Source: Candidatus Sysuiplasmataceae archaeon
Lineage (GTDB): Archaea > Thermoplasmatota > Thermoplasmata > Sysuiplasmatales > Sysuiplasmataceae
NCBI GenBank assembly: GCA_046706185.1
Contig: JBJKPR010000002.1
Location: 31,433 to 95,432, forward strand
DNA length: 64,000 bases
Direction: 5' to 3'
The translations under genes and the position numbers were made by a program. Shown piece by piece: positions 49,243 to 57,730 of the stretch. The notes under the pieces are model-generated. The model was not told the DNA's origin. It searched no databases and saw only the letters and a program-made list of their open reading frames with translations. Within the stretch, counting starts at the first letter, position 1; each line of letters opens with the position of its first letter.

Positions 49243-51450
49243 TTACCTGTAGTAGCCGAAGCCTGCGCTCTCGCCCTTTCTTACCAGCGCAGAACGCAGA
49301 TCCTGCCTGAAACGCTCGTAGAAACGCATCGTCTCCTCGTTGGTGGATGGATAGACAACTGTAAGCGCCTTTTCAAAATCGGACATCTTGACCTCCAATG
49401 CATCGGGGTTGAGCCTGAGGGCATTCAGCGCTGCCTCCTTGCAGAGCGCCTCCAGGTCCGCGCCAACAAACCCGTCTGTCCTCTCTGCAAGATCGTCTAT
49501 ATCCACACCCTTCAGCGGCATCGCTGAAGTGTGGACTTTCAGTATTTCCAGCCTCGTGTCCCTGTCCGGCACAGGTACGAGTACTATCTTGTCGAACCTG
49601 CCAGGACGCAGGAGGGCTTTGTCCACTATATCTGGTCTGTTGGTTGCAGCGATGACGGTGACGGAGCCGAGAGATTCCAGGCCGTCGAGAGATGTGAGTA
49701 TCTGGTCCACAACACGCTCACTTGCACCTGAATCATAGCCCATGCCGCGCTGCGGCGCTATTGCGTCCAGCTCATCAAGGAAGATGATGCTTGGCGCCAC
49801 CTGCTTTGCCTTCTTGAATATCAGTCGTATGGCCCTCTCACTCTCCCCGACCCACTTACTCATTATCTCTGGACCCTTGATGGCGATGAAGTTTGCCTTC
49901 GATTCGTTGGCAAGCGCCTTTGCCACGAGCGTCTTCCCTGTCCCGGGCGGGCCGTAGAGCAGAATTCCCCTCGGAGGAGAAATGCCGAGCCTCTTCAGCG
50001 AATCAGGATCGCGGAGCGGCAGTTCGACTGCTTCGAACAGCTGTCTCTTTATCTGCTCCAGCCCCCCGACATCCTTCCATGTGACGTCCGGTATTTCGAC
50101 CTGGACCTCCCTCATAGCGCTTGGCTCTATCTCCTTCAGCGCGTTCACAAAGTCAGCTTCGGTGACCTTCATCCTTTCCAGTATGTCTGCCGGAATGGGT
50201 TTGTCAAGGTCTATCTCAGGTATGTACCGGACAAGAGTCTTCATGGCTGCCTCCCTGGCCAGGGAGGCAAGGTCTGCACCCACGAAACCGTACGTGAAGT
50301 CGACAAACCTGTCGAGGTCGAACCCCTCCTCCAGAGGCATTCTCCTGGTGTGAATGAGAAGTATCTCCTTCCTGCCGGCCCTTGTCGGCACGCCAATCTC
50401 TATCTCCCGGTCGAACCTTCCGGGCCTGCGGAGTGCAGGGTCTATGGCATCTTCCCTGTTGGTGGCGCCTATCACTATCACATGGCCCCTCTTGCTAAGG
50501 CCGTCCATGAGAGTGAGCAGTTGTGCGACCACCCTTCTCTCAACCTCACCCTGGACATCCTCCCTTTTCGGAGCAATCGAATCGAGTTCGTCAATGAAAA
50601 TGATGGACGGCGCGTTTTTTTCGGCATCCTCGAACTTTTCCCTGAGCTTCTCCTCACTCTGGCCGTAATACTTGCTCATTATCTCAGGACCCTGGATGGA
50701 GTAGAAACTCGCGCCCGCCTCATTAGCCACCGCCCTGGCAATCAGCGTCTTGCCTGTCCCCGGAGGACCGTAGAGGAGAACGCCTTTGGGCGGGTCAATT
50801 CCGAGCCTCTCGAAGAGTTCCGGATGTTTGAGCGGAAGCTCGATCATCTCCCTCACCCTCTGGAGCTCGTTGTCGAGGCCGCCTATATCGTCGTATGTTA
50901 TTGTGGATGCTGAGACATCGACAACCTCCACAGCCTCAGTCTTGACGACAAGTTCAGATGATTCTGCGACCAGGACCACGCCGGATGGCGAAGTGGAAAT
51001 GACAACAAACGGAAGGAAATCACCTATGAGCGCTATGTTTGGTATTATTATTTCATCGCCCTTGACCAGGGGCCTGTTCATGAGCCCTTTCTTGAAAAGG
51101 TCCTCAACCCCCTGACCGAATTTGACCTTCTTGCCCTGAGGTATCTTGGGGGCGACAACTATCTTGGTCGCCTTCTGCGCATCTGACTTCTTGGCCACAA
51201 TCTTCTCGCCTATGCTCACGCCCGCGTTGCCGCGTATCATGCCGTCTATCCTGATAATGCCCTTGCCCTCATCCTCGTGAGACGCACGGAACACCTTGGC
51301 GGCAGTCCTGCGTTTGCCAATTATCTCTATTATGTCCCCCACTTCGACGCCGAGTTCCTTTCTTGTAGTTGTGTCTACCCTTGCTCGCCCGAGGCCGACT
51401 TCTGACTGGTGGTGCGCCCTTGCGACTTTGAGTGAGAGTCCATCGCTCAT
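49243..51450 (-). CDS. cdc48: CDC48/VCP-like AAA+ ATPase (two AAA domains plus N domain)
   Basis: Two Walker A (GPPGTGKT), two Walker B (DELD) and two SRH regions. N-terminal double-psi barrel domain. Confidence 0.9.
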
Positions 51451-51984
51451 TGCATTCTATTTGTACATTAAATTACTATTAGAAACTATGTCCATGCGTT
51501 CTGTTTTCAGAGTCCCGGCAGCATTGGAGCAGAACCTGTTTTCGAACGGTGAAATGGCTCAAGCGAATGAAGCGCAGCCGGCATGCTGCCAGGACGGTAC
51601 GGGTCTAATTCCCTGGAAAACCGAATGCTGCTGCCACAATTCTGTTCAGGGCGGAAGCAGAAGGGAGGCGACGAGGTCGGCTCAATGTAATTCGGGCCGA
51701 CATGCAGCTGTATGATCAGGAGAGCGTGGCACGTATTTTTTTCGGCTGAGGGAAAATTGTCTGGCAATGGAAAAAGAAACATGTCGAACTGATACCATTA
51801 TATGATATATCGAATAATATTATGAAAACTCCAGATGAAGGAGAAATCGAACGTCATACAAATCCAAGACATTGTCATGCAATCGTCAGACATTTTTTAT
51901 ACTTGAAAAGCATTTCATCCTCTGGAATAGGAAATCATGCGATTTCCACAAAGGCCCTCATCGGGGGCCGGAGAGGATGGGAAA

Positions 51985-52455
51985 ATGTTCGACAGACTAA
52001 GAAGTGTGTTTGGAAGAAAGAAGAACCATGCGACACCGACCGCAGCCGCAACAAGTGTCGCTGTGCCAATCGTTGAGTCTGAACCGCAGGGGCTCACTGC
52101 CGAGGACGAGATAGTGAATGCACTCGCGAGCGCATCGCAACTCCCTTCGGACAGCATAGATCGCGAAACAAATGAGGCAATAGAAAGGATAGCCTCACTC
52201 CTTGCAGAGGAGCCGCCGAAGCTGAAGAGGGGAAACCCTGGCGGTCAGGAATACACAGTCAGACTGACATACAACCAGAAGGAATGGATAGACCATGCTT
52301 ACGAAGGGTATGTAAGCAGCCACTCGTTTGCGCCTTTCCAGAGGGTCATGCAGGCGTTCGTGGAGAACTACATCAGGGCGGTCGAGGAAAGGGTCACCCC
52401 GCCTGCTTCAGAAATAACACAGACTGAATACGAGAGCGCATCAACTGAGGCATAA
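51985..52455 (+). CDS. hypothetical protein
   Basis: ORF divergent from cdc48 with acidic, protein-like composition. No family recognised. Confidence 0.3.
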   Translation: MFDRLRSVFGRKKNHATPTAAATSVAVPIVESEPQGLTAEDEIVNALASASQLPSDSIDRETNEAIERIASLLAEEPPKLKRGNPGGQEYTVRLTYNQKEWIDHAYEGYVSSHSFAPFQRVMQAFVENYIRAVEERVTPPASEITQTEYESASTEA

Positions 52456-52569: not shown

Positions 52570-52905
52570 TTACTTGGTTCCTTTCGGGCTCGCTCCCGCT
52601 ACTGCCCTGTCCTTCTTCCGGGGCCTGCTGCATATTGCATATTCGTCACCGTCAAAGAAAACATCCAGGTCAGGGTGACTGGACTGTATCTCCCGTATCG
52701 TCTTCAGCACATCCTTTAGTGTAAGCTTGCTGTTCTTGTCGATCTTTATATGTATCTGCTTTTCGCCTTTTGTCACGGCCTCATCAACACTCGTGGTCTG
52801 TGCTTCGCTGTCTAATCGATGAGTCAAGATATTAATCCTTTGATGCCCGAAGGCTCCTTGTTGGCGCTGTGCACAGTCATTTATTCCCGAAAATGCCAGC
52901 TTCAA
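52570..52905 (-). CDS. hypothetical small protein
   Basis: ORF overlaps the 3' end of gmhA by 29 nt. Start uncertain and no family recognised. Confidence 0.2.
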   Translation of the reverse strand: MKLAFSGINDCAQRQQGAFGHQRINILTHRLDSEAQTTSVDEAVTKGEKQIHIKIDKNSKLTLKDVLKTIREIQSSHPDLDVFFDGDEYAICSRPRKKDRAVAGASPKGTK

Positions 52906-53672: not shown

Positions 53673-54914
53673 GTGTTCAATACGGCGACTACAATCATAT
53701 TCGGAGCTGACGGCTACATCGGATGGCCCCTTGCCCTTCATCTCGGTGCCAGGGACAACGACAAGATTATACTTGTAGACAATCTGTCAACAAGAAAACT
53801 GGTTAAGTCTGTTAAATCTGATACGCTGATTCCAATACTCTCGATGAAGGAGAGGATGAACGCCTATACAAGGGAAACCGGGAAGAAGAACCTGGTTTTC
53901 ATTGAAGCGGATATCCAGGATCCGAAGTCGGTGGACAGGATTATTGCGAAGTACAAGCCTGACAACCTTGTCCATCTGGCGCAGCAGAGATCGGCTCCCT
54001 TCAGCATGGTTGACCAGGAGCATATACTCTACACGGAACTAAACAACATATCGACAAACATCAACATACTTTTCTCAATGATACGGCACGTCCCGCATGC
54101 GCATCTGCTCAAGATGGGCAGCATGGGCGAATACGGCACCCCAGGCATAGAGATTACCGAGGGGGATGTCGAAATAACAAGGAAGGGCAAGAGCGCAAAA
54201 GTCATGTTCCCGAGGATGGGGCAGAGCTGGTATCACCTCAGCAAGATATTCGACACGTATAACGTTGCGATGGCCAACAGGGTATACAACATAGCCGCAA
54301 CCGACGTGATGCAGGGCGTGGTCTACGGGACAAGGATCGATGAAATCACGAATGACGCCTTTGCCACCAGGTTTGACTTCGATTCCATCTGGGGGACGGT
54401 TATAAACAAGTACGTTGTCCAGTCGGTGCTGCTCAACAAGCTGCTTATCTACGGCAAGGGAAGGCAGACAAGGGGCTTCCTTTCACTTTATGACAGTGTC
54501 AACTGCCTTACGCTGTTGCACGACAATCCTGCCGAGACGGGACAGTACAGGGTCGTGAACCAGCTTGATGAGATTTACGACACTGTGCAGCTGGCTGAAA
54601 AGGTGCAGAAGATAGGGCGTGAGTTTGGCATTGAGGCAGAAATGGAGTTTGTGGAAAACCCGAGGGTGGAAAAAGAAGAGCACGACTACGAGGTTGAGCA
54701 CAATATACTTCCCTCCCTGGGGTTCAGGCAGGAAAAGACGATGGAGACAGTCCTTAGGGAAATGTTTGAGGACGTGCTCAAGAACAAGAAGAGGGCTGCA
54801 GCGATGAAGAAACTCATCTACCCCACTGTCTACTGGAGAACTGCCACTGCCATGAAGGTAAAGGATTTCGCGATGCCCCGCAGCCTCATGAACACAAAAA
54901 TAGACAAGAAATGA
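53673..54914 (+). CDS. SQD1-like NAD-dependent sugar-nucleotide epimerase/dehydratase (UDP-sulfoquinovose synthase family; Agl3-like)
   Basis: GADGYIGWPLALHL N-terminal motif with long insertion loops and YxxxK (YHLSK), characteristic of SQD1/SqdB rather than ordinary SDR epimerases. About 410 aa. Confidence 0.7.
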   Translation: MFNTATTIIFGADGYIGWPLALHLGARDNDKIILVDNLSTRKLVKSVKSDTLIPILSMKERMNAYTRETGKKNLVFIEADIQDPKSVDRIIAKYKPDNLVHLAQQRSAPFSMVDQEHILYTELNNISTNINILFSMIRHVPHAHLLKMGSMGEYGTPGIEITEGDVEITRKGKSAKVMFPRMGQSWYHLSKIFDTYNVAMANRVYNIAATDVMQGVVYGTRIDEITNDAFATRFDFDSIWGTVINKYVVQSVLLNKLLIYGKGRQTRGFLSLYDSVNCLTLLHDNPAETGQYRVVNQLDEIYDTVQLAEKVQKIGREFGIEAEMEFVENPRVEKEEHDYEVEHNILPSLGFRQEKTMETVLREMFEDVLKNKKRAAAMKKLIYPTVYWRTATAMKVKDFAMPRSLMNTKIDKK

Positions 54915-55000: not shown

Positions 55001-56626
55001 TTGCAGGAAGAGAGAACCGAGGCCCGGGAGGAGAGGTGCTCCATATGCGACGGGGCACTAGACCCGCAAGGCGTTTGCCTTCTCTGCGGTCATGACAACA
55101 GCATGAAGCTGGTTGACCATGAGGAGGGGCAGTCGGGGGACAACGACGGGCTCCGGGAGGGGAATTCGCCTGCCGATAAAGACATAGAGTCGATTGTCAG
55201 GTGGCTCTCGGGAAGCGAGGAGGGCGGTATCTCTTTTCTGGATATGGAGGAACCCCAGATCGCTGTTGCTGAAGAGAAGGCGGTGGAACAGGAACAACCT
55301 GCTGTCGCAATGCTGCCCGAAGGCGAGGCAGGGCACCTGGCCGGAGAGATAGCTGAACTGAAGATCAAACTTATGGAAGCCAATGCCACAATAGAGAAGC
55401 TCAGGGTGGAGCTCAAGACAATGGAGACGGTTGCCTCCGTTTCGGCCCCTTCAGACATGGCCGAGAGGCTATCAATGACTGTCAAGGCTCACCTTGAGCT
55501 TGAAGCGGCGATCAAGCAGAAGGACAGGCATATCGACGAGTTGAGGAACGAACTCAAGGTCAAGGAAGACAGCCTCAGCAACCTGATGGAAAAGACGAGG
55601 TTCAAGGAGGAGGAGTTCAACAACAGGGAGATCAGCCTGCAGCACAGGGAGGAGCTCCTCAAGGAAGAGCTTCGGAAAATTGAGATGAATAAAGCGCAGA
55701 TGGGCTCGATGAAGGAGATAGAGCTCAAGAAATCACTTGAGGATCTTCGTGAGCAGATAAAAGCAAAGGAGGAGAAGGTCAAGTCTCTTGAAAAATACCT
55801 TTCCCAGAAGGAGGAAGAGCTTGACAGGAGAGAGAAGGCGCTTATCGGAAAAGAGGTCGAAGTCATGGAGGAGCTGACAATAGCCGAGCTCAAACAGGAG
55901 AAGGTCAAATCAGGCACTCCAAGGCTGGACGACCTTCTTTTCGGCGGAATACCGGTCGGCGCACAGGTGGCGATATACGGACCGCCGTTTGTGGGAAAGG
56001 AGGTCGTCATGAATGCCTTCGCGGCCGAGGGTCTGAGGAAGGGCATACCTGTCATTTGGGTAACAACGGACCACACAATCAGGGAAATCAGGGAGGAGAT
56101 GTCATATGTCCTCAACGGCTTCGAGGAGTATGAGAAGCTTGGGCTGATGTATTACATTGATGCCTACTCGAGAAGCATAGGGGACAACTCAAGGGTCGAA
56201 AATGCGGCGTACATAGAGGATTTCAGCGACATAGAGAACATAGACGCCCTGGTCGAAAAGAGGCTTGATGCAGTAAGGGACATAGTGGAGAAGAAGAGCT
56301 ACAGGGTCATATTCAAGTCAATATCGAGCCTGACAGCGGTATACGAGACAAAGAACATATTCAAGCTTCTGAGGCCGTTTGTAGCCAAGAGGAAGAGGGA
56401 CAAGTGCACAGCCATGTATTGCGTTGAAAAGGGGATTGTGAGCGATCAGGACGTTCAGATAATAGGCTCGATCATGGACGGGATAATAGAGTTTGAAACC
56501 GACGGCCAGAGCAATTTCATAGAGATCAGGGGAATATGCGAAACGCAGACAAGGGACAGGGTGAAGTACACGGCAAGCAAGAGCGCCCTGTCGATTGGGT
56601 CATTCAGCCTCGGGCATATTAAGTGA
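55001..56626 (+). CDS. zinc-ribbon / long coiled-coil / C-terminal KaiC-like (RecA-superfamily) domain protein with a degenerate Walker A
   Basis: N-terminal CSICDG...CLLCGH. About 250 aa of heptad-rich E/K/L sequence. C-terminal LDDLLFGGIPVGAQVAIYGPPFVGKE (KaiC/RadA-like P-loop with GKE instead of GKS/T). Confidence 0.55.
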   Translation: MQEERTEAREERCSICDGALDPQGVCLLCGHDNSMKLVDHEEGQSGDNDGLREGNSPADKDIESIVRWLSGSEEGGISFLDMEEPQIAVAEEKAVEQEQPAVAMLPEGEAGHLAGEIAELKIKLMEANATIEKLRVELKTMETVASVSAPSDMAERLSMTVKAHLELEAAIKQKDRHIDELRNELKVKEDSLSNLMEKTRFKEEEFNNREISLQHREELLKEELRKIEMNKAQMGSMKEIELKKSLEDLREQIKAKEEKVKSLEKYLSQKEEELDRREKALIGKEVEVMEELTIAELKQEKVKSGTPRLDDLLFGGIPVGAQVAIYGPPFVGKEVVMNAFAAEGLRKGIPVIWVTTDHTIREIREEMSYVLNGFEEYEKLGLMYYIDAYSRSIGDNSRVENAAYIEDFSDIENIDALVEKRLDAVRDIVEKKSYRVIFKSISSLTAVYETKNIFKLLRPFVAKRKRDKCTAMYCVEKGIVSDQDVQIIGSIMDGIIEFETDGQSNFIEIRGICETQTRDRVKYTASKSALSIGSFSLGHIK

Positions 56627-57064
56627 TCAGGCCACTTCCATGCCCTTTGGCGATTCACCCTTCTTCTGCTGGGACATGTCCACCTGCGGGAGCGGCACTG
56701 GCGGCGGGAGCTGTATGTCCCTCGTCACGATTGTTGCAGTTATTATGCAGTTGGATATCACTGCGTTGTGAACTATGTTCGCAAGCTCGGGCGGCATGTT
56801 GTTCGTGCTGCCCCATTCCCTCGCGATGGTATCAGGGCTCCTGGTGTCGTCAGCCACCACAATCTTCCCGTCCATCCTTACGAACCCGATGCCGGAGTAA
56901 TTGGCCGTAAACCTGAATTCGATCGACAGGTCCGTCTGGTTAAGCGGCACGACAGACGTGACTGTGTTGTTGTGGTCGATACGGACGTTCATCAGCTTCT
57001 CGCCTACCTTCGAGAAACGCTTCGCCTCTATCGAGCTGAGTTCCCATCCTTTGATTGCTATCAT
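56627..57064 (-). CDS. hypothetical protein
   Basis: 145-aa ORF convergent with and abutting the KaiC-like gene. No family recognised. Confidence 0.3.
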   Translation of the reverse strand: MIAIKGWELSSIEAKRFSKVGEKLMNVRIDHNNTVTSVVPLNQTDLSIEFRFTANYSGIGFVRMDGKIVVADDTRSPDTIAREWGSTNNMPPELANIVHNAVISNCIITATIVTRDIQLPPPVPLPQVDMSQQKKGESPKGMEVA

Positions 57065-57274: not shown

Positions 57275-57730
57275 ATGGAATCGACAAACAAGGAACTGAC
57301 AAAGATAGCGGATCTGACGCCCGAGTCAAAGAGCGTCAATGTGATAGCAAAAGTCTTATCTGTCGGAGAAGCAAAGGAAATCCCTTCCAGGTTCGGACCT
57401 TCAAGGAAGGTCGCGGAAGTGCCCATAGCGGATGACACAGGAACTGTTGTCCTGAGCCTCTGGCAGGACCAGATCGGGACTGTCGGCGAGGGAGAAACAA
57501 TCCAGATTGAAAATGGATACGTTTCACTTGTTAAGGGTCACATAAGGGTCAATGTCGGAAAATACGGCAAAATAGCCAAGAGCGAGGTTGACGTAAGCGA
57601 GCCGAACACAGGCACCAATGTCAGCGACAAGGAATACGAGATGCCCGAGAGGCGCCCGTACCGTGGCGGTGGCGGAGACAGGGACAGGAGAAGGTCGTTC
57701 GGCGGACGCGGTGGCGACAGAAGGTTCTGA
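57275..57730 (+). CDS. ssb: single-stranded DNA-binding protein (single OB fold, RGG/RD-rich C-terminal tail)
   Basis: OB-fold region (VNVIAKVLSVGE...GTVVLSLWQDQ) and flexible tail RRPYRGGGGDRDRRRSFGGRGGDRRF, as in crenarchaeal and Thermoplasma-type SSBs. Confidence 0.7.
   Translation: MESTNKELTKIADLTPESKSVNVIAKVLSVGEAKEIPSRFGPSRKVAEVPIADDTGTVVLSLWQDQIGTVGEGETIQIENGYVSLVKGHIRVNVGKYGKIAKSEVDVSEPNTGTNVSDKEYEMPERRPYRGGGGDRDRRRSFGGRGGDRRF

Follow-up and report, generated by a model that had tools for sequence, protein, structure and literature searches.

KaiC-like proteins are among the most abundant and least understood P-loop proteins of archaea, and the superfamily to which they belong is very diverse. 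The closest known counterparts of the protein discussed here are PH0284 (2dr3) and SSO2452 (2w0m), stand-alone archaeal KaiC-like ATPases of the "KaiC/GvpD/RAD55 family" (PF06745, COG0467) that have a canonical GxxGxGKT Walker A motif, a Walker B aspartate, and a Glu-Glu pair. Here, we describe a gene pair in a 64,000-nucleotide stretch of contig JBJKPR010000002.1 from a Candidatus Sysuiplasmataceae archaeon (the window, whose numbering is used for this genome throughout): a gene for a 541-amino-acid (aa) zinc-ribbon, helical-stalk, and KaiC-fold protein (55001..56626, + strand, TTG start and TGA stop, placed from the list of open reading frames (ORFs) and from homologues) and, converging on it, a gene for a 145-aa protein with a predicted SecB fold (56627..57064, - strand, from the ORF list). 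Unlike PH0284 and SSO2452, the family of the large protein has neither the Walker A Ser/Thr nor the Walker B aspartate and keeps an acidic residue only at the first position of the Glu-Glu pair, and it carries a zinc ribbon, WL motifs, a stalk of ~190-450 residues, and a SecB-fold partner, all of which are absent from these two ATPases. We found that the degeneration of the nucleotide site has been fixed and kept by selection throughout the family, rather than arising as decay in a single genome, and that the gene pair is a module vertically inherited across Thermoplasmatota.

The remodeling of the nucleotide site affects both residues that would normally position magnesium. Using PH0284 as the reference for the alignment, we tabulated the states of the site in 84 family members from public genomes, 80 of which cover positions 333/334. 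Opposite GGPGTGKT of PH0284, the window protein reads GPPFVGKE (residues 327-334; 55979..56002, + strand), which departs from the canonical Walker A GxxxxGK[ST] by placing a glutamate where the Mg-coordinating Ser/Thr should stand. A first-pass annotation, made from the letters alone, had remarked on this missing Ser/Thr, and the change proved to be both real and family-wide: position 334 is E in 80/80 members covering the site, directly after a P-loop lysine at position 333 that is K in 79/80. The annotation had also proposed a search for the Walker B residue and the catalytic glutamate, of which the former turned out to be lost and the latter to be retained as an acidic residue. On the Walker B-equivalent strand, YRVIFKSIS (56300..56326, + strand; opposite RVVVDSVTT of PH0284), the window protein has a lysine at the expected aspartate, position 439, which is R in 69 members, K in 5, and hydrophobic in 9, and never D or E. 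At the catalytic-Glu site, the window protein has T-D-H (56066..56074, + strand; WVTTDH opposite YVALEE) in place of the L-E-E of PH0284; here, T356 is near-invariant, position 357 is always acidic (D in 42, E in 39), and position 358, the second Glu of the pair, is K in 71, with H or R also occurring. A G332K change accompanies five of six cases without R439, all in one clade, and we give little weight to the charge compensation that it might represent.

In proteins of the RecA fold, the hydroxyl group of Walker A and the carboxylate of Walker B point toward a common Mg ion. As both canonical side chains meet there, the new Glu334 and Arg/Lys439 most likely pair with each other, neutralize each other, and fill the Mg site, and the KaiC-fold domain is probably devoid of canonical ATP hydrolysis. 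Because Walker A is degenerate family-wide and the Walker B aspartate is gone too, the earlier suggestion of a pseudo-ATPase or non-canonical nucleotide sensor appears to be a reasonable reading. The family can be likened to the RecA-fold pseudo-ATPase scaffolds, such as Elp4/5/6 of Elongator, the Rad51 paralogues XRCC2, XRCC3, and RAD51D, and Psy3-Csm2, although these have no detectable specific sequence relationship to it and occur in other taxa and other domain contexts. In contrast to them, the window family retains the P-loop Lys, and its altered residues Glu334 and Arg/Lys439 are themselves invariant.

A full-length AlphaFold2 (AF2) model of the 541-aa protein, built on 55 homologues, and the family alignment delineated the remaining architecture. 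The N-terminal C4 zinc ribbon that the first-pass annotation had seen (C13-x2-C16-x9-C26-x2-C29; 55037..55087, + strand; translation CSICDGALDPQGVCLLC) is borne out by conserved cysteines and by a confident prediction over residues ~9-35, at a predicted local distance difference test (pLDDT) score of ~87, while one homologue shows a weak match to Pfam Zn_ribbon_3. The N-terminal CxxC...CxxC precedes the first internal methionine and is kept in the homologues; since this conserved ribbon lies upstream of that methionine, the TTG start is credible. A mostly disordered linker (residues 36-109) follows, with flanks at 36-56 and 71-109 of pLDDT <50 around a short amphipathic helix (residues 59-69) that bears a conserved [RK]WL[AS]GE[ED] motif (55175..55219, + strand), with WLSG as its core in the window protein. 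W68, L69, and G71 of this motif are ≥90% conserved, and homologues carry one to three copies of it. The next segment is an E/K/L-rich α-helical stalk of ~190 residues (residues 110-298; 55328..55894, + strand), modeled as helices 110-148 and 151-298 with a break at 149-150 and a dip in pLDDT near 230-240. Where ~250 aa of uninterrupted coiled coil had been described, a long helix is indeed present, but it spans only these ~190 residues, is broken at 149-150, and is preceded by ~75 mostly disordered ones; the coiled-coil claim was also overstated in that the stalk is only partly heptad-like. Heptad scoring limited the clear patterns to around residues 101-135 and 241-275, and no significant global 3.5-residue periodicity was found in the stalk. 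The E/K-rich middle may be a single α-helix, and a library scan returned weak matches to SMC coiled-coil models. The half of the stalk beside the KaiC domain is strongly conserved, with invariant residues that include E184, K202, R216, E217, K256, E257, and E258.

The protein ends in a single, confidently modeled KaiC/RecA-fold domain (residues 300-541; 55898..56623, + strand) with the conserved C-terminus GSFSL[GD]HI[KR]. In agreement with the KaiC-like assignment made at first sight, Pfam KaiC PF06745 matches residues 302-502 with 69.6 bits, well above its gathering cutoff of 26.6, and the RecA-type α/β core of the predicted model can be superimposed on solved KaiC-like structures, the closest being PH0284, SSO2452, KaiC, and FlaH.

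The 145-aa protein gave no significant match in Pfam or NCBIfam, and its AF2 model (pLDDT 85.6) shows four strands followed by two helices, with the last ~20 residues disordered (residues 133-145 at pLDDT <50). When this model was searched with Foldseek, the top 22 matches were all SecB or SecB-like, and we conclude that the predicted structure has the SecB fold. We claim the fold and not homology because no sequence-level link to SecB was found: there was no Pfam match, a profile search of the PDB came back empty, and hhalign against an approximate E. coli SecB sequence returned a probability of 0.2%. Archaea are generally not known to have SecB. Compared to SecB and the SecB-like toxin-antitoxin-chaperone (TAC) protein Rv1957, the archaeal protein lacks the second helix of SecB, carries LPPPxPLP and GMEVA motifs of its own, and has no toxin or antitoxin genes near it. 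A TAC or defense role was likewise rejected, as PADLOC gave no hits, no locus had toxin or antitoxin neighbors, and the distribution is vertical and phylum-wide.

Two segments of the 145-aa protein stand out beyond the core, in which NVRIDHN, FRFTANY, W84, H99, and C106 are invariant or near-invariant in the alignment. After the last helix of the SecB-fold core comes the invariant proline-rich LPPPVPLP (56687..56710, - strand; P121, P122, P124, and P126 invariant), whose family form is LPPPxPLP, and then, beyond a variable, basic, disordered linker, the C-terminal tail G-M-E-V-A (56630..56644, - strand), in which E143, V144, and A145 are invariant or ≥90% conserved. We regard this tail as a candidate docking peptide. 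Five metagenomic proteins of 262-272 aa (P0183, P0184, P0185, P0283, and P0304) are tandem duplications of the SecB-fold unit; of these, P0184 was inspected and has a degenerate first copy, followed by one that retains a ...QEVA tail. The existence of such fused members hints that the functional unit of the SecB-fold protein may be a dimer.

A single-sequence search recovered 62 members of the 145-aa family and a profile search 684, all named ones belonging to Thermoplasmatota, while an exhaustive profile search extended the family to 1085 representative clusters at E ≤ 0.001, for which there is no Pfam model. In distant members, the core and the LPPP segment are retained, but the tails are different and lineage-specific (...YIR, ...DYR, ...DYH, ...GYA, ...KK). 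Examples are found at L090 5001-5414, L092 3118-3552, L095 4001-4429, and L096 5001-5396, and their contexts differ as well: upstream of Cdc48 (directly so in L090), upstream of SepRS, convergent with a TFS/RPB9-type zinc-ribbon gene, and elsewhere beside reverse gyrase. The TFS/RPB9-convergent arrangement includes one Thermoplasmatales metagenome-assembled genome (MAG) in which no KaiC-fold gene lies near. As the distant members have other tails and contexts, the pairing and the GMEVA tail are features of one branch, and this restriction fits a branch-specific docking peptide. Relatives that occur without a KaiC-fold gene nearby show that the small protein is able to function without the large one.

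Conservation of the pairing was examined by searching all fetched loci with hidden Markov models (HMMs) of both families, with 80 species-level genome loci as the base of the counts. In 64/80 loci, the SecB-fold gene lies downstream of the KaiC-fold gene on the opposite strand, with a gap of 0-62 nt in 61 and of 454-754 nt in the other 3. Clustering of all flanking ORFs singled it out as the only near-universal neighbor, while the other neighbors of the pair vary between lineages. Hence, the loss of the gene pair in relatives, by which the first-pass annotation proposed to judge its own reading, did not occur. The two convergent ORFs and their 0-bp gap were exactly as it had described: in the window, the stop codons abut (TGA followed directly by TCA), leaving no intergenic base. 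Together they form the palindrome TGATCA (within 56621-56632), and no obvious oligo-T tract lies near. Because there is neither an intergenic base nor such a tract, the two transcripts are likely to overlap at their 3' ends, each reaching into the coding region of the other.

The 16/80 loci without a SecB-fold neighbor comprise DHVE2/Aciduliprofundum with a related ~595-aa subtype, a ~730-aa clade, and three divergent second paralogues. Partnerless loci further include L068, despite 1.5 kb of downstream sequence, and two or three contigs that offer little sequence beyond the gene. In DHVE2 and the ~595-aa subtype, the KaiC-fold gene instead stands in an LSM, KaiC-fold, Kae1-Bud32 arrangement, which looks like an operon of RNA-related genes. 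In the DHVE2/Aciduliprofundum loci L099 (8134-11730) and L006 (5780-9387), it is followed within 5-10 nt by the Kae1-Bud32 fusion gene, and in L099, it overlaps the end of the Sm-like (LSM) gene by 4 nt; no SecB-fold gene was found within the ~2-8 kb available on each side of these two loci. The three divergent paralogues occur in some Sysuiplasma-like MAGs (L022, in the MAG of L010; L051, in the MAG of L014; and L063), are 634-715 aa long with HMM scores of 430-476 versus ~750, and show no zinc ribbon or WL motif by regular expression and no SecB-fold neighbor. With the SecA zinc finger and SecB as the model, we also asked whether the zinc ribbon could be what receives the SecB-fold protein. 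This idea is not supported, as P0105/L008 keeps the partner without a ribbon and DHVE2 retains the ribbon without an adjacent partner.

A homology search with the 541-aa protein returned >250 proteins, the top 120 of which were 36-100% identical, with full-length homologues at 40-82% identity and one NCBI record, P0001, being the identical 541-aa protein. All named matches were from Thermoplasmata, Methanomassiliicoccales, Sysuiplasma, or "Methanobacteriota" MAGs. A scan with one genome per species found relatives in at least 312 genomes, and among the 80 genomes listed, all with a lineage in their title were Thermoplasmatota, including DHVE2/Aciduliprofundum. Many members are 700-860 aa long and carry a double helix-hairpin-helix module, (HhH)2, between the zinc ribbon and the stalk, which is missing from the window clade (540-548 aa) and from the DHVE2 forms (~595 aa). 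Almost every member has the zinc ribbon, one to three WL motifs, the stalk, the remodeled site, and the C-terminus GSFSL[GD]HI[KR]. Databases list the family under generic names ("KaiC/GvpD/RAD55 family RecA-like ATPase", "ATPase domain-containing protein", "recombinase RecA"), and UniRef calls the orthologue in the cultured Aciduliprofundum sp. MAR08-339 a "DUF7504 family protein".

No characterized family claims the large protein. NCBIfam models for ArlH, FlaH, KaiC, RadB, RadA/Sms, and RecA scored it at 15-38 bits against cutoffs of 172-546. For the ArlH/FlaH equivalogs, the scores were 20.2 versus 215 (NF052589), 37.7 versus 194 (NF004723), and 15 versus 215 (NF006320), and in contrast to ArlH/FlaH of the archaellum motor, which have no stalk or zinc ribbon, the window protein does not have intact ATP-binding motifs and has no archaellum or pilus genes in the window. 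Circadian KaiC has two tandem domains versus one here, and its models gave 34.9 versus 408 (NF006799) and 15.1 versus 546 (TIGR02655). The RadA/RadB group was equally distant (RadB 21.4 versus 278 and 16.1 versus 172; RadA/Sms 17.7 versus 403; RecA 16.1 versus 325), and a RadA-type N-terminal helix-hairpin-helix is absent from the window protein and appears only in long homologues (P0043, HHH_5 at 57.5 bits). A match to a characterized family with an intact site, such as ArlH/FlaH or a RadA paralogue, which had been named as the outcome that would overturn the first-pass annotation, was thus not obtained. Its statement that the protein could not be placed in a described family holds for characterized families but not at the superfamily or DUF level, where PF06745 matches and relatives pass DUF7504 (PF24336): against a cutoff of 27, the window protein scored 26.2 bits and orthologues 67.4 (P0043), 34.5 (P0070), and 32.8. 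DUF7504 and DUF7090 (PF23365) are uncharacterized archaeal families; relatives of the window protein pass the DUF7504 model over its full length, but that model has no stalk, zinc ribbon, or partner, and its label says nothing on function. A literature search for an earlier description of either family, which did not reach the 2017 KaiC-hub survey, found only general surveys of KaiC and of type IV pili. The family is uncharacterized, and its fixed remodeled site, its stalked architecture, and its SecB-fold partner are all without prior characterization.

The wider locus in the window proved less telling. As first annotated, the pair is flanked on its two sides by an SQD1-like gene (53673-54914, + strand) and a crenarchaeal-type ssb (57275-57730, library match). 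The name UDP-sulfoquinovose synthase is probable for the former but not certain, because its 498 bits fall under the NF041015 cutoff of 575. As clues to function, both neighbors were rejected: they are clade-specific, in ~5-6/84 loci (ssb adjacency in ~5), and carry little information. At a distance of 3.5 kb, the pair is preceded by the gene for a 735-aa Cdc48/VAT-type double-AAA+ ATPase (49243-51450, - strand), an upstream neighbor that is also present in the Sysuiplasma locus L001. Two ORFs without a Pfam match recur near the pair, one (51937-52455, + strand) in 6 loci and the other (52570-52905, - strand) in 11; the latter encodes a small protein whose sequence contains ...L(T/S)L(K/R)(D/E)VL(K/D)(T/K)I(R/K)E(I/L)Q..HP(D/E)... 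In one sub-lineage, a type IV pilus-like block (a pilin-like gene, T2SSE, and two T2SSF) flanks the pair in ~25-28/84 loci. In L004 (9212-14424), L008 (8893-13953), and ~25 further loci, this block and the SecB-fold gene are divergently transcribed; its pilin-like gene has a weak DUF7289 match, and a second PilB3-type ATPase follows the two T2SSF genes. Such a linkage is absent at the window locus, where a tblastn search of the 64 kb found no T2SSE, T2SSF, or pilin-like gene.

We tentatively favor a reading, which we put at somewhat short of an even chance, in which the large protein serves as a scaffold that oligomerises without hydrolysing ATP, may sense a ligand, and works with the SecB-fold protein. 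In such a scaffold, the zinc ribbon and one or more WLxGE motifs on their flexible linker would be held at the tip of the long helical stalk, with the single KaiC/RecA-fold domain and its rebuilt Mg-ATP chemistry at the opposite end. This domain may lack catalysis and provide a platform for oligomerization, perhaps one that senses phosphate or nucleotide, by analogy with Elp4/5/6 or XRCC2. The SecB-fold protein would bind the large protein, either by docking its GMEVA tail and proline segment onto the KaiC-fold/stalk part, or by gripping an extended segment of the large protein in the way that SecB-like chaperones hold their clients; in either mode, it would control the stability or assembly of the large protein. 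Several observations weigh against this picture. The large protein occurs without an adjacent SecB-fold gene in DHVE2, the ~730-aa clade, and the second paralogues, and conversely, Thermoplasmatales and other archaea have SecB-fold genes with no KaiC-fold gene nearby. The zinc ribbon and the WL motif do not track the presence of the partner. A convergent pair is not an operon, and adjacency alone is no proof of a complex. Finally, the retained P-loop Lys and acidic residue at the catalytic position are compatible with nucleotide binding or an unconventional activity.

One alternative, which we consider unlikely, is that the domain is an active but unconventional NTP switch, in which the Lys binds phosphate, Glu334 holds a metal or Arg439 replaces it, and Asp/Glu357 serves as the base, with nucleotide or autophosphorylation cycling like that of KaiC/ArlH being signaled through the stalk. 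Besides the conservation of K333 (79/80) and of an acidic residue at 357, the closest structures are those of active KaiC-like ATPases (PH0284, SSO2452, KaiC, and FlaH), which would suit such a switch. However, both Mg-positioning residues are replaced in every member, one of them by a cationic side chain, and all characterized equivalogs scored far under their cutoffs. We know of no characterized RecA-fold enzyme with this combination of residues. A regulatory switch would, on the other hand, be in line with the proposal that KaiC-family proteins are regulators in archaea, often encoded near type IV pilus loci (PMC4858521).

It is similarly doubtful that the adjacency has been conserved without a complex, the SecB-fold protein being a general archaeal chaperone-like factor with a role of its own, and the tail-to-tail order being kept by regulation (through overlapping 3' ends and antisense interference) or by chance inheritance. 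In its favor, the SecB-fold family extends well beyond the pair, with its 1085 representatives and its members beside Cdc48, SepRS, reverse gyrase, and TFS, and the convergent genes are not co-transcribed, with gaps of 0-62 nt across which the 3' transcript ends probably overlap. Yet the arrangement is kept in 64/80 genomes while all other neighbors change, and only the paired branch has the invariant GMEVA tail.

A role as a RadA-paralogue-like mediator of DNA recombination and repair, or as a chromosome-associated scaffold, seems less probable still. In this scenario, the zinc ribbon and HhH would bind DNA, and the pseudo-ATPase core, in the manner of a Rad51 paralogue, would act on RadA filaments by capping or modulating them, which would suit the HhH of many relatives and the match to SSO2452, but the window protein has no HhH and the scores for the families concerned are low. 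We regard it as very unlikely that the protein serves a type IV pilus-like or archaellum-like machine in an accessory or regulatory capacity, in the manner of ArlH on the ArlI ATPase: while ~25-28/84 loci adjoin the pilin-like gene, T2SSE ATPase, and two T2SSF genes, and KaiC-family proteins are documented to associate with type IV pilus loci in archaea (PMC4858521), this neighborhood is seen in a single sub-lineage and may reflect inherited synteny, none of these genes is present in the window, the ArlH equivalog reached 20.2 versus 215, and ArlH requires an intact ATP site according to a preprint (bioRxiv 10.1101/2021.03.19.436134).

The finding thus is that a whole phylum keeps a KaiC-fold protein with a Glu/Arg swap, a long stalk, and a SecB-fold companion, of which the fixed swap and the archaeal SecB-fold partner will be the surprising points for specialists. 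Biochemistry is feasible, because a cultured organism, Aciduliprofundum sp. MAR08-339, carries a member of the family. A bolder extension, to which we give a low probability, is an undescribed phylum-specific structural system, in which a non-enzymatic ring or rod scaffold is assembled or gated by a chaperone-like subunit. If true, such a scaffold would organize a core process of the cell, for example the handling of chromosomes, the machinery of the cell surface, or the architecture of the cell in these archaea, which often lack a wall; this would be distinct from the signaling roles assumed for KaiC-like proteins. On our favored reading of a non-hydrolysing scaffold working with its SecB-fold partner, and provided that the two proteins do form a complex, archaeal cell biology would gain a pseudo-enzyme scaffold with a dedicated chaperone-like subunit, and the wider archaeal SecB-fold family (~1000 representative clusters) would obtain its first functional anchor.

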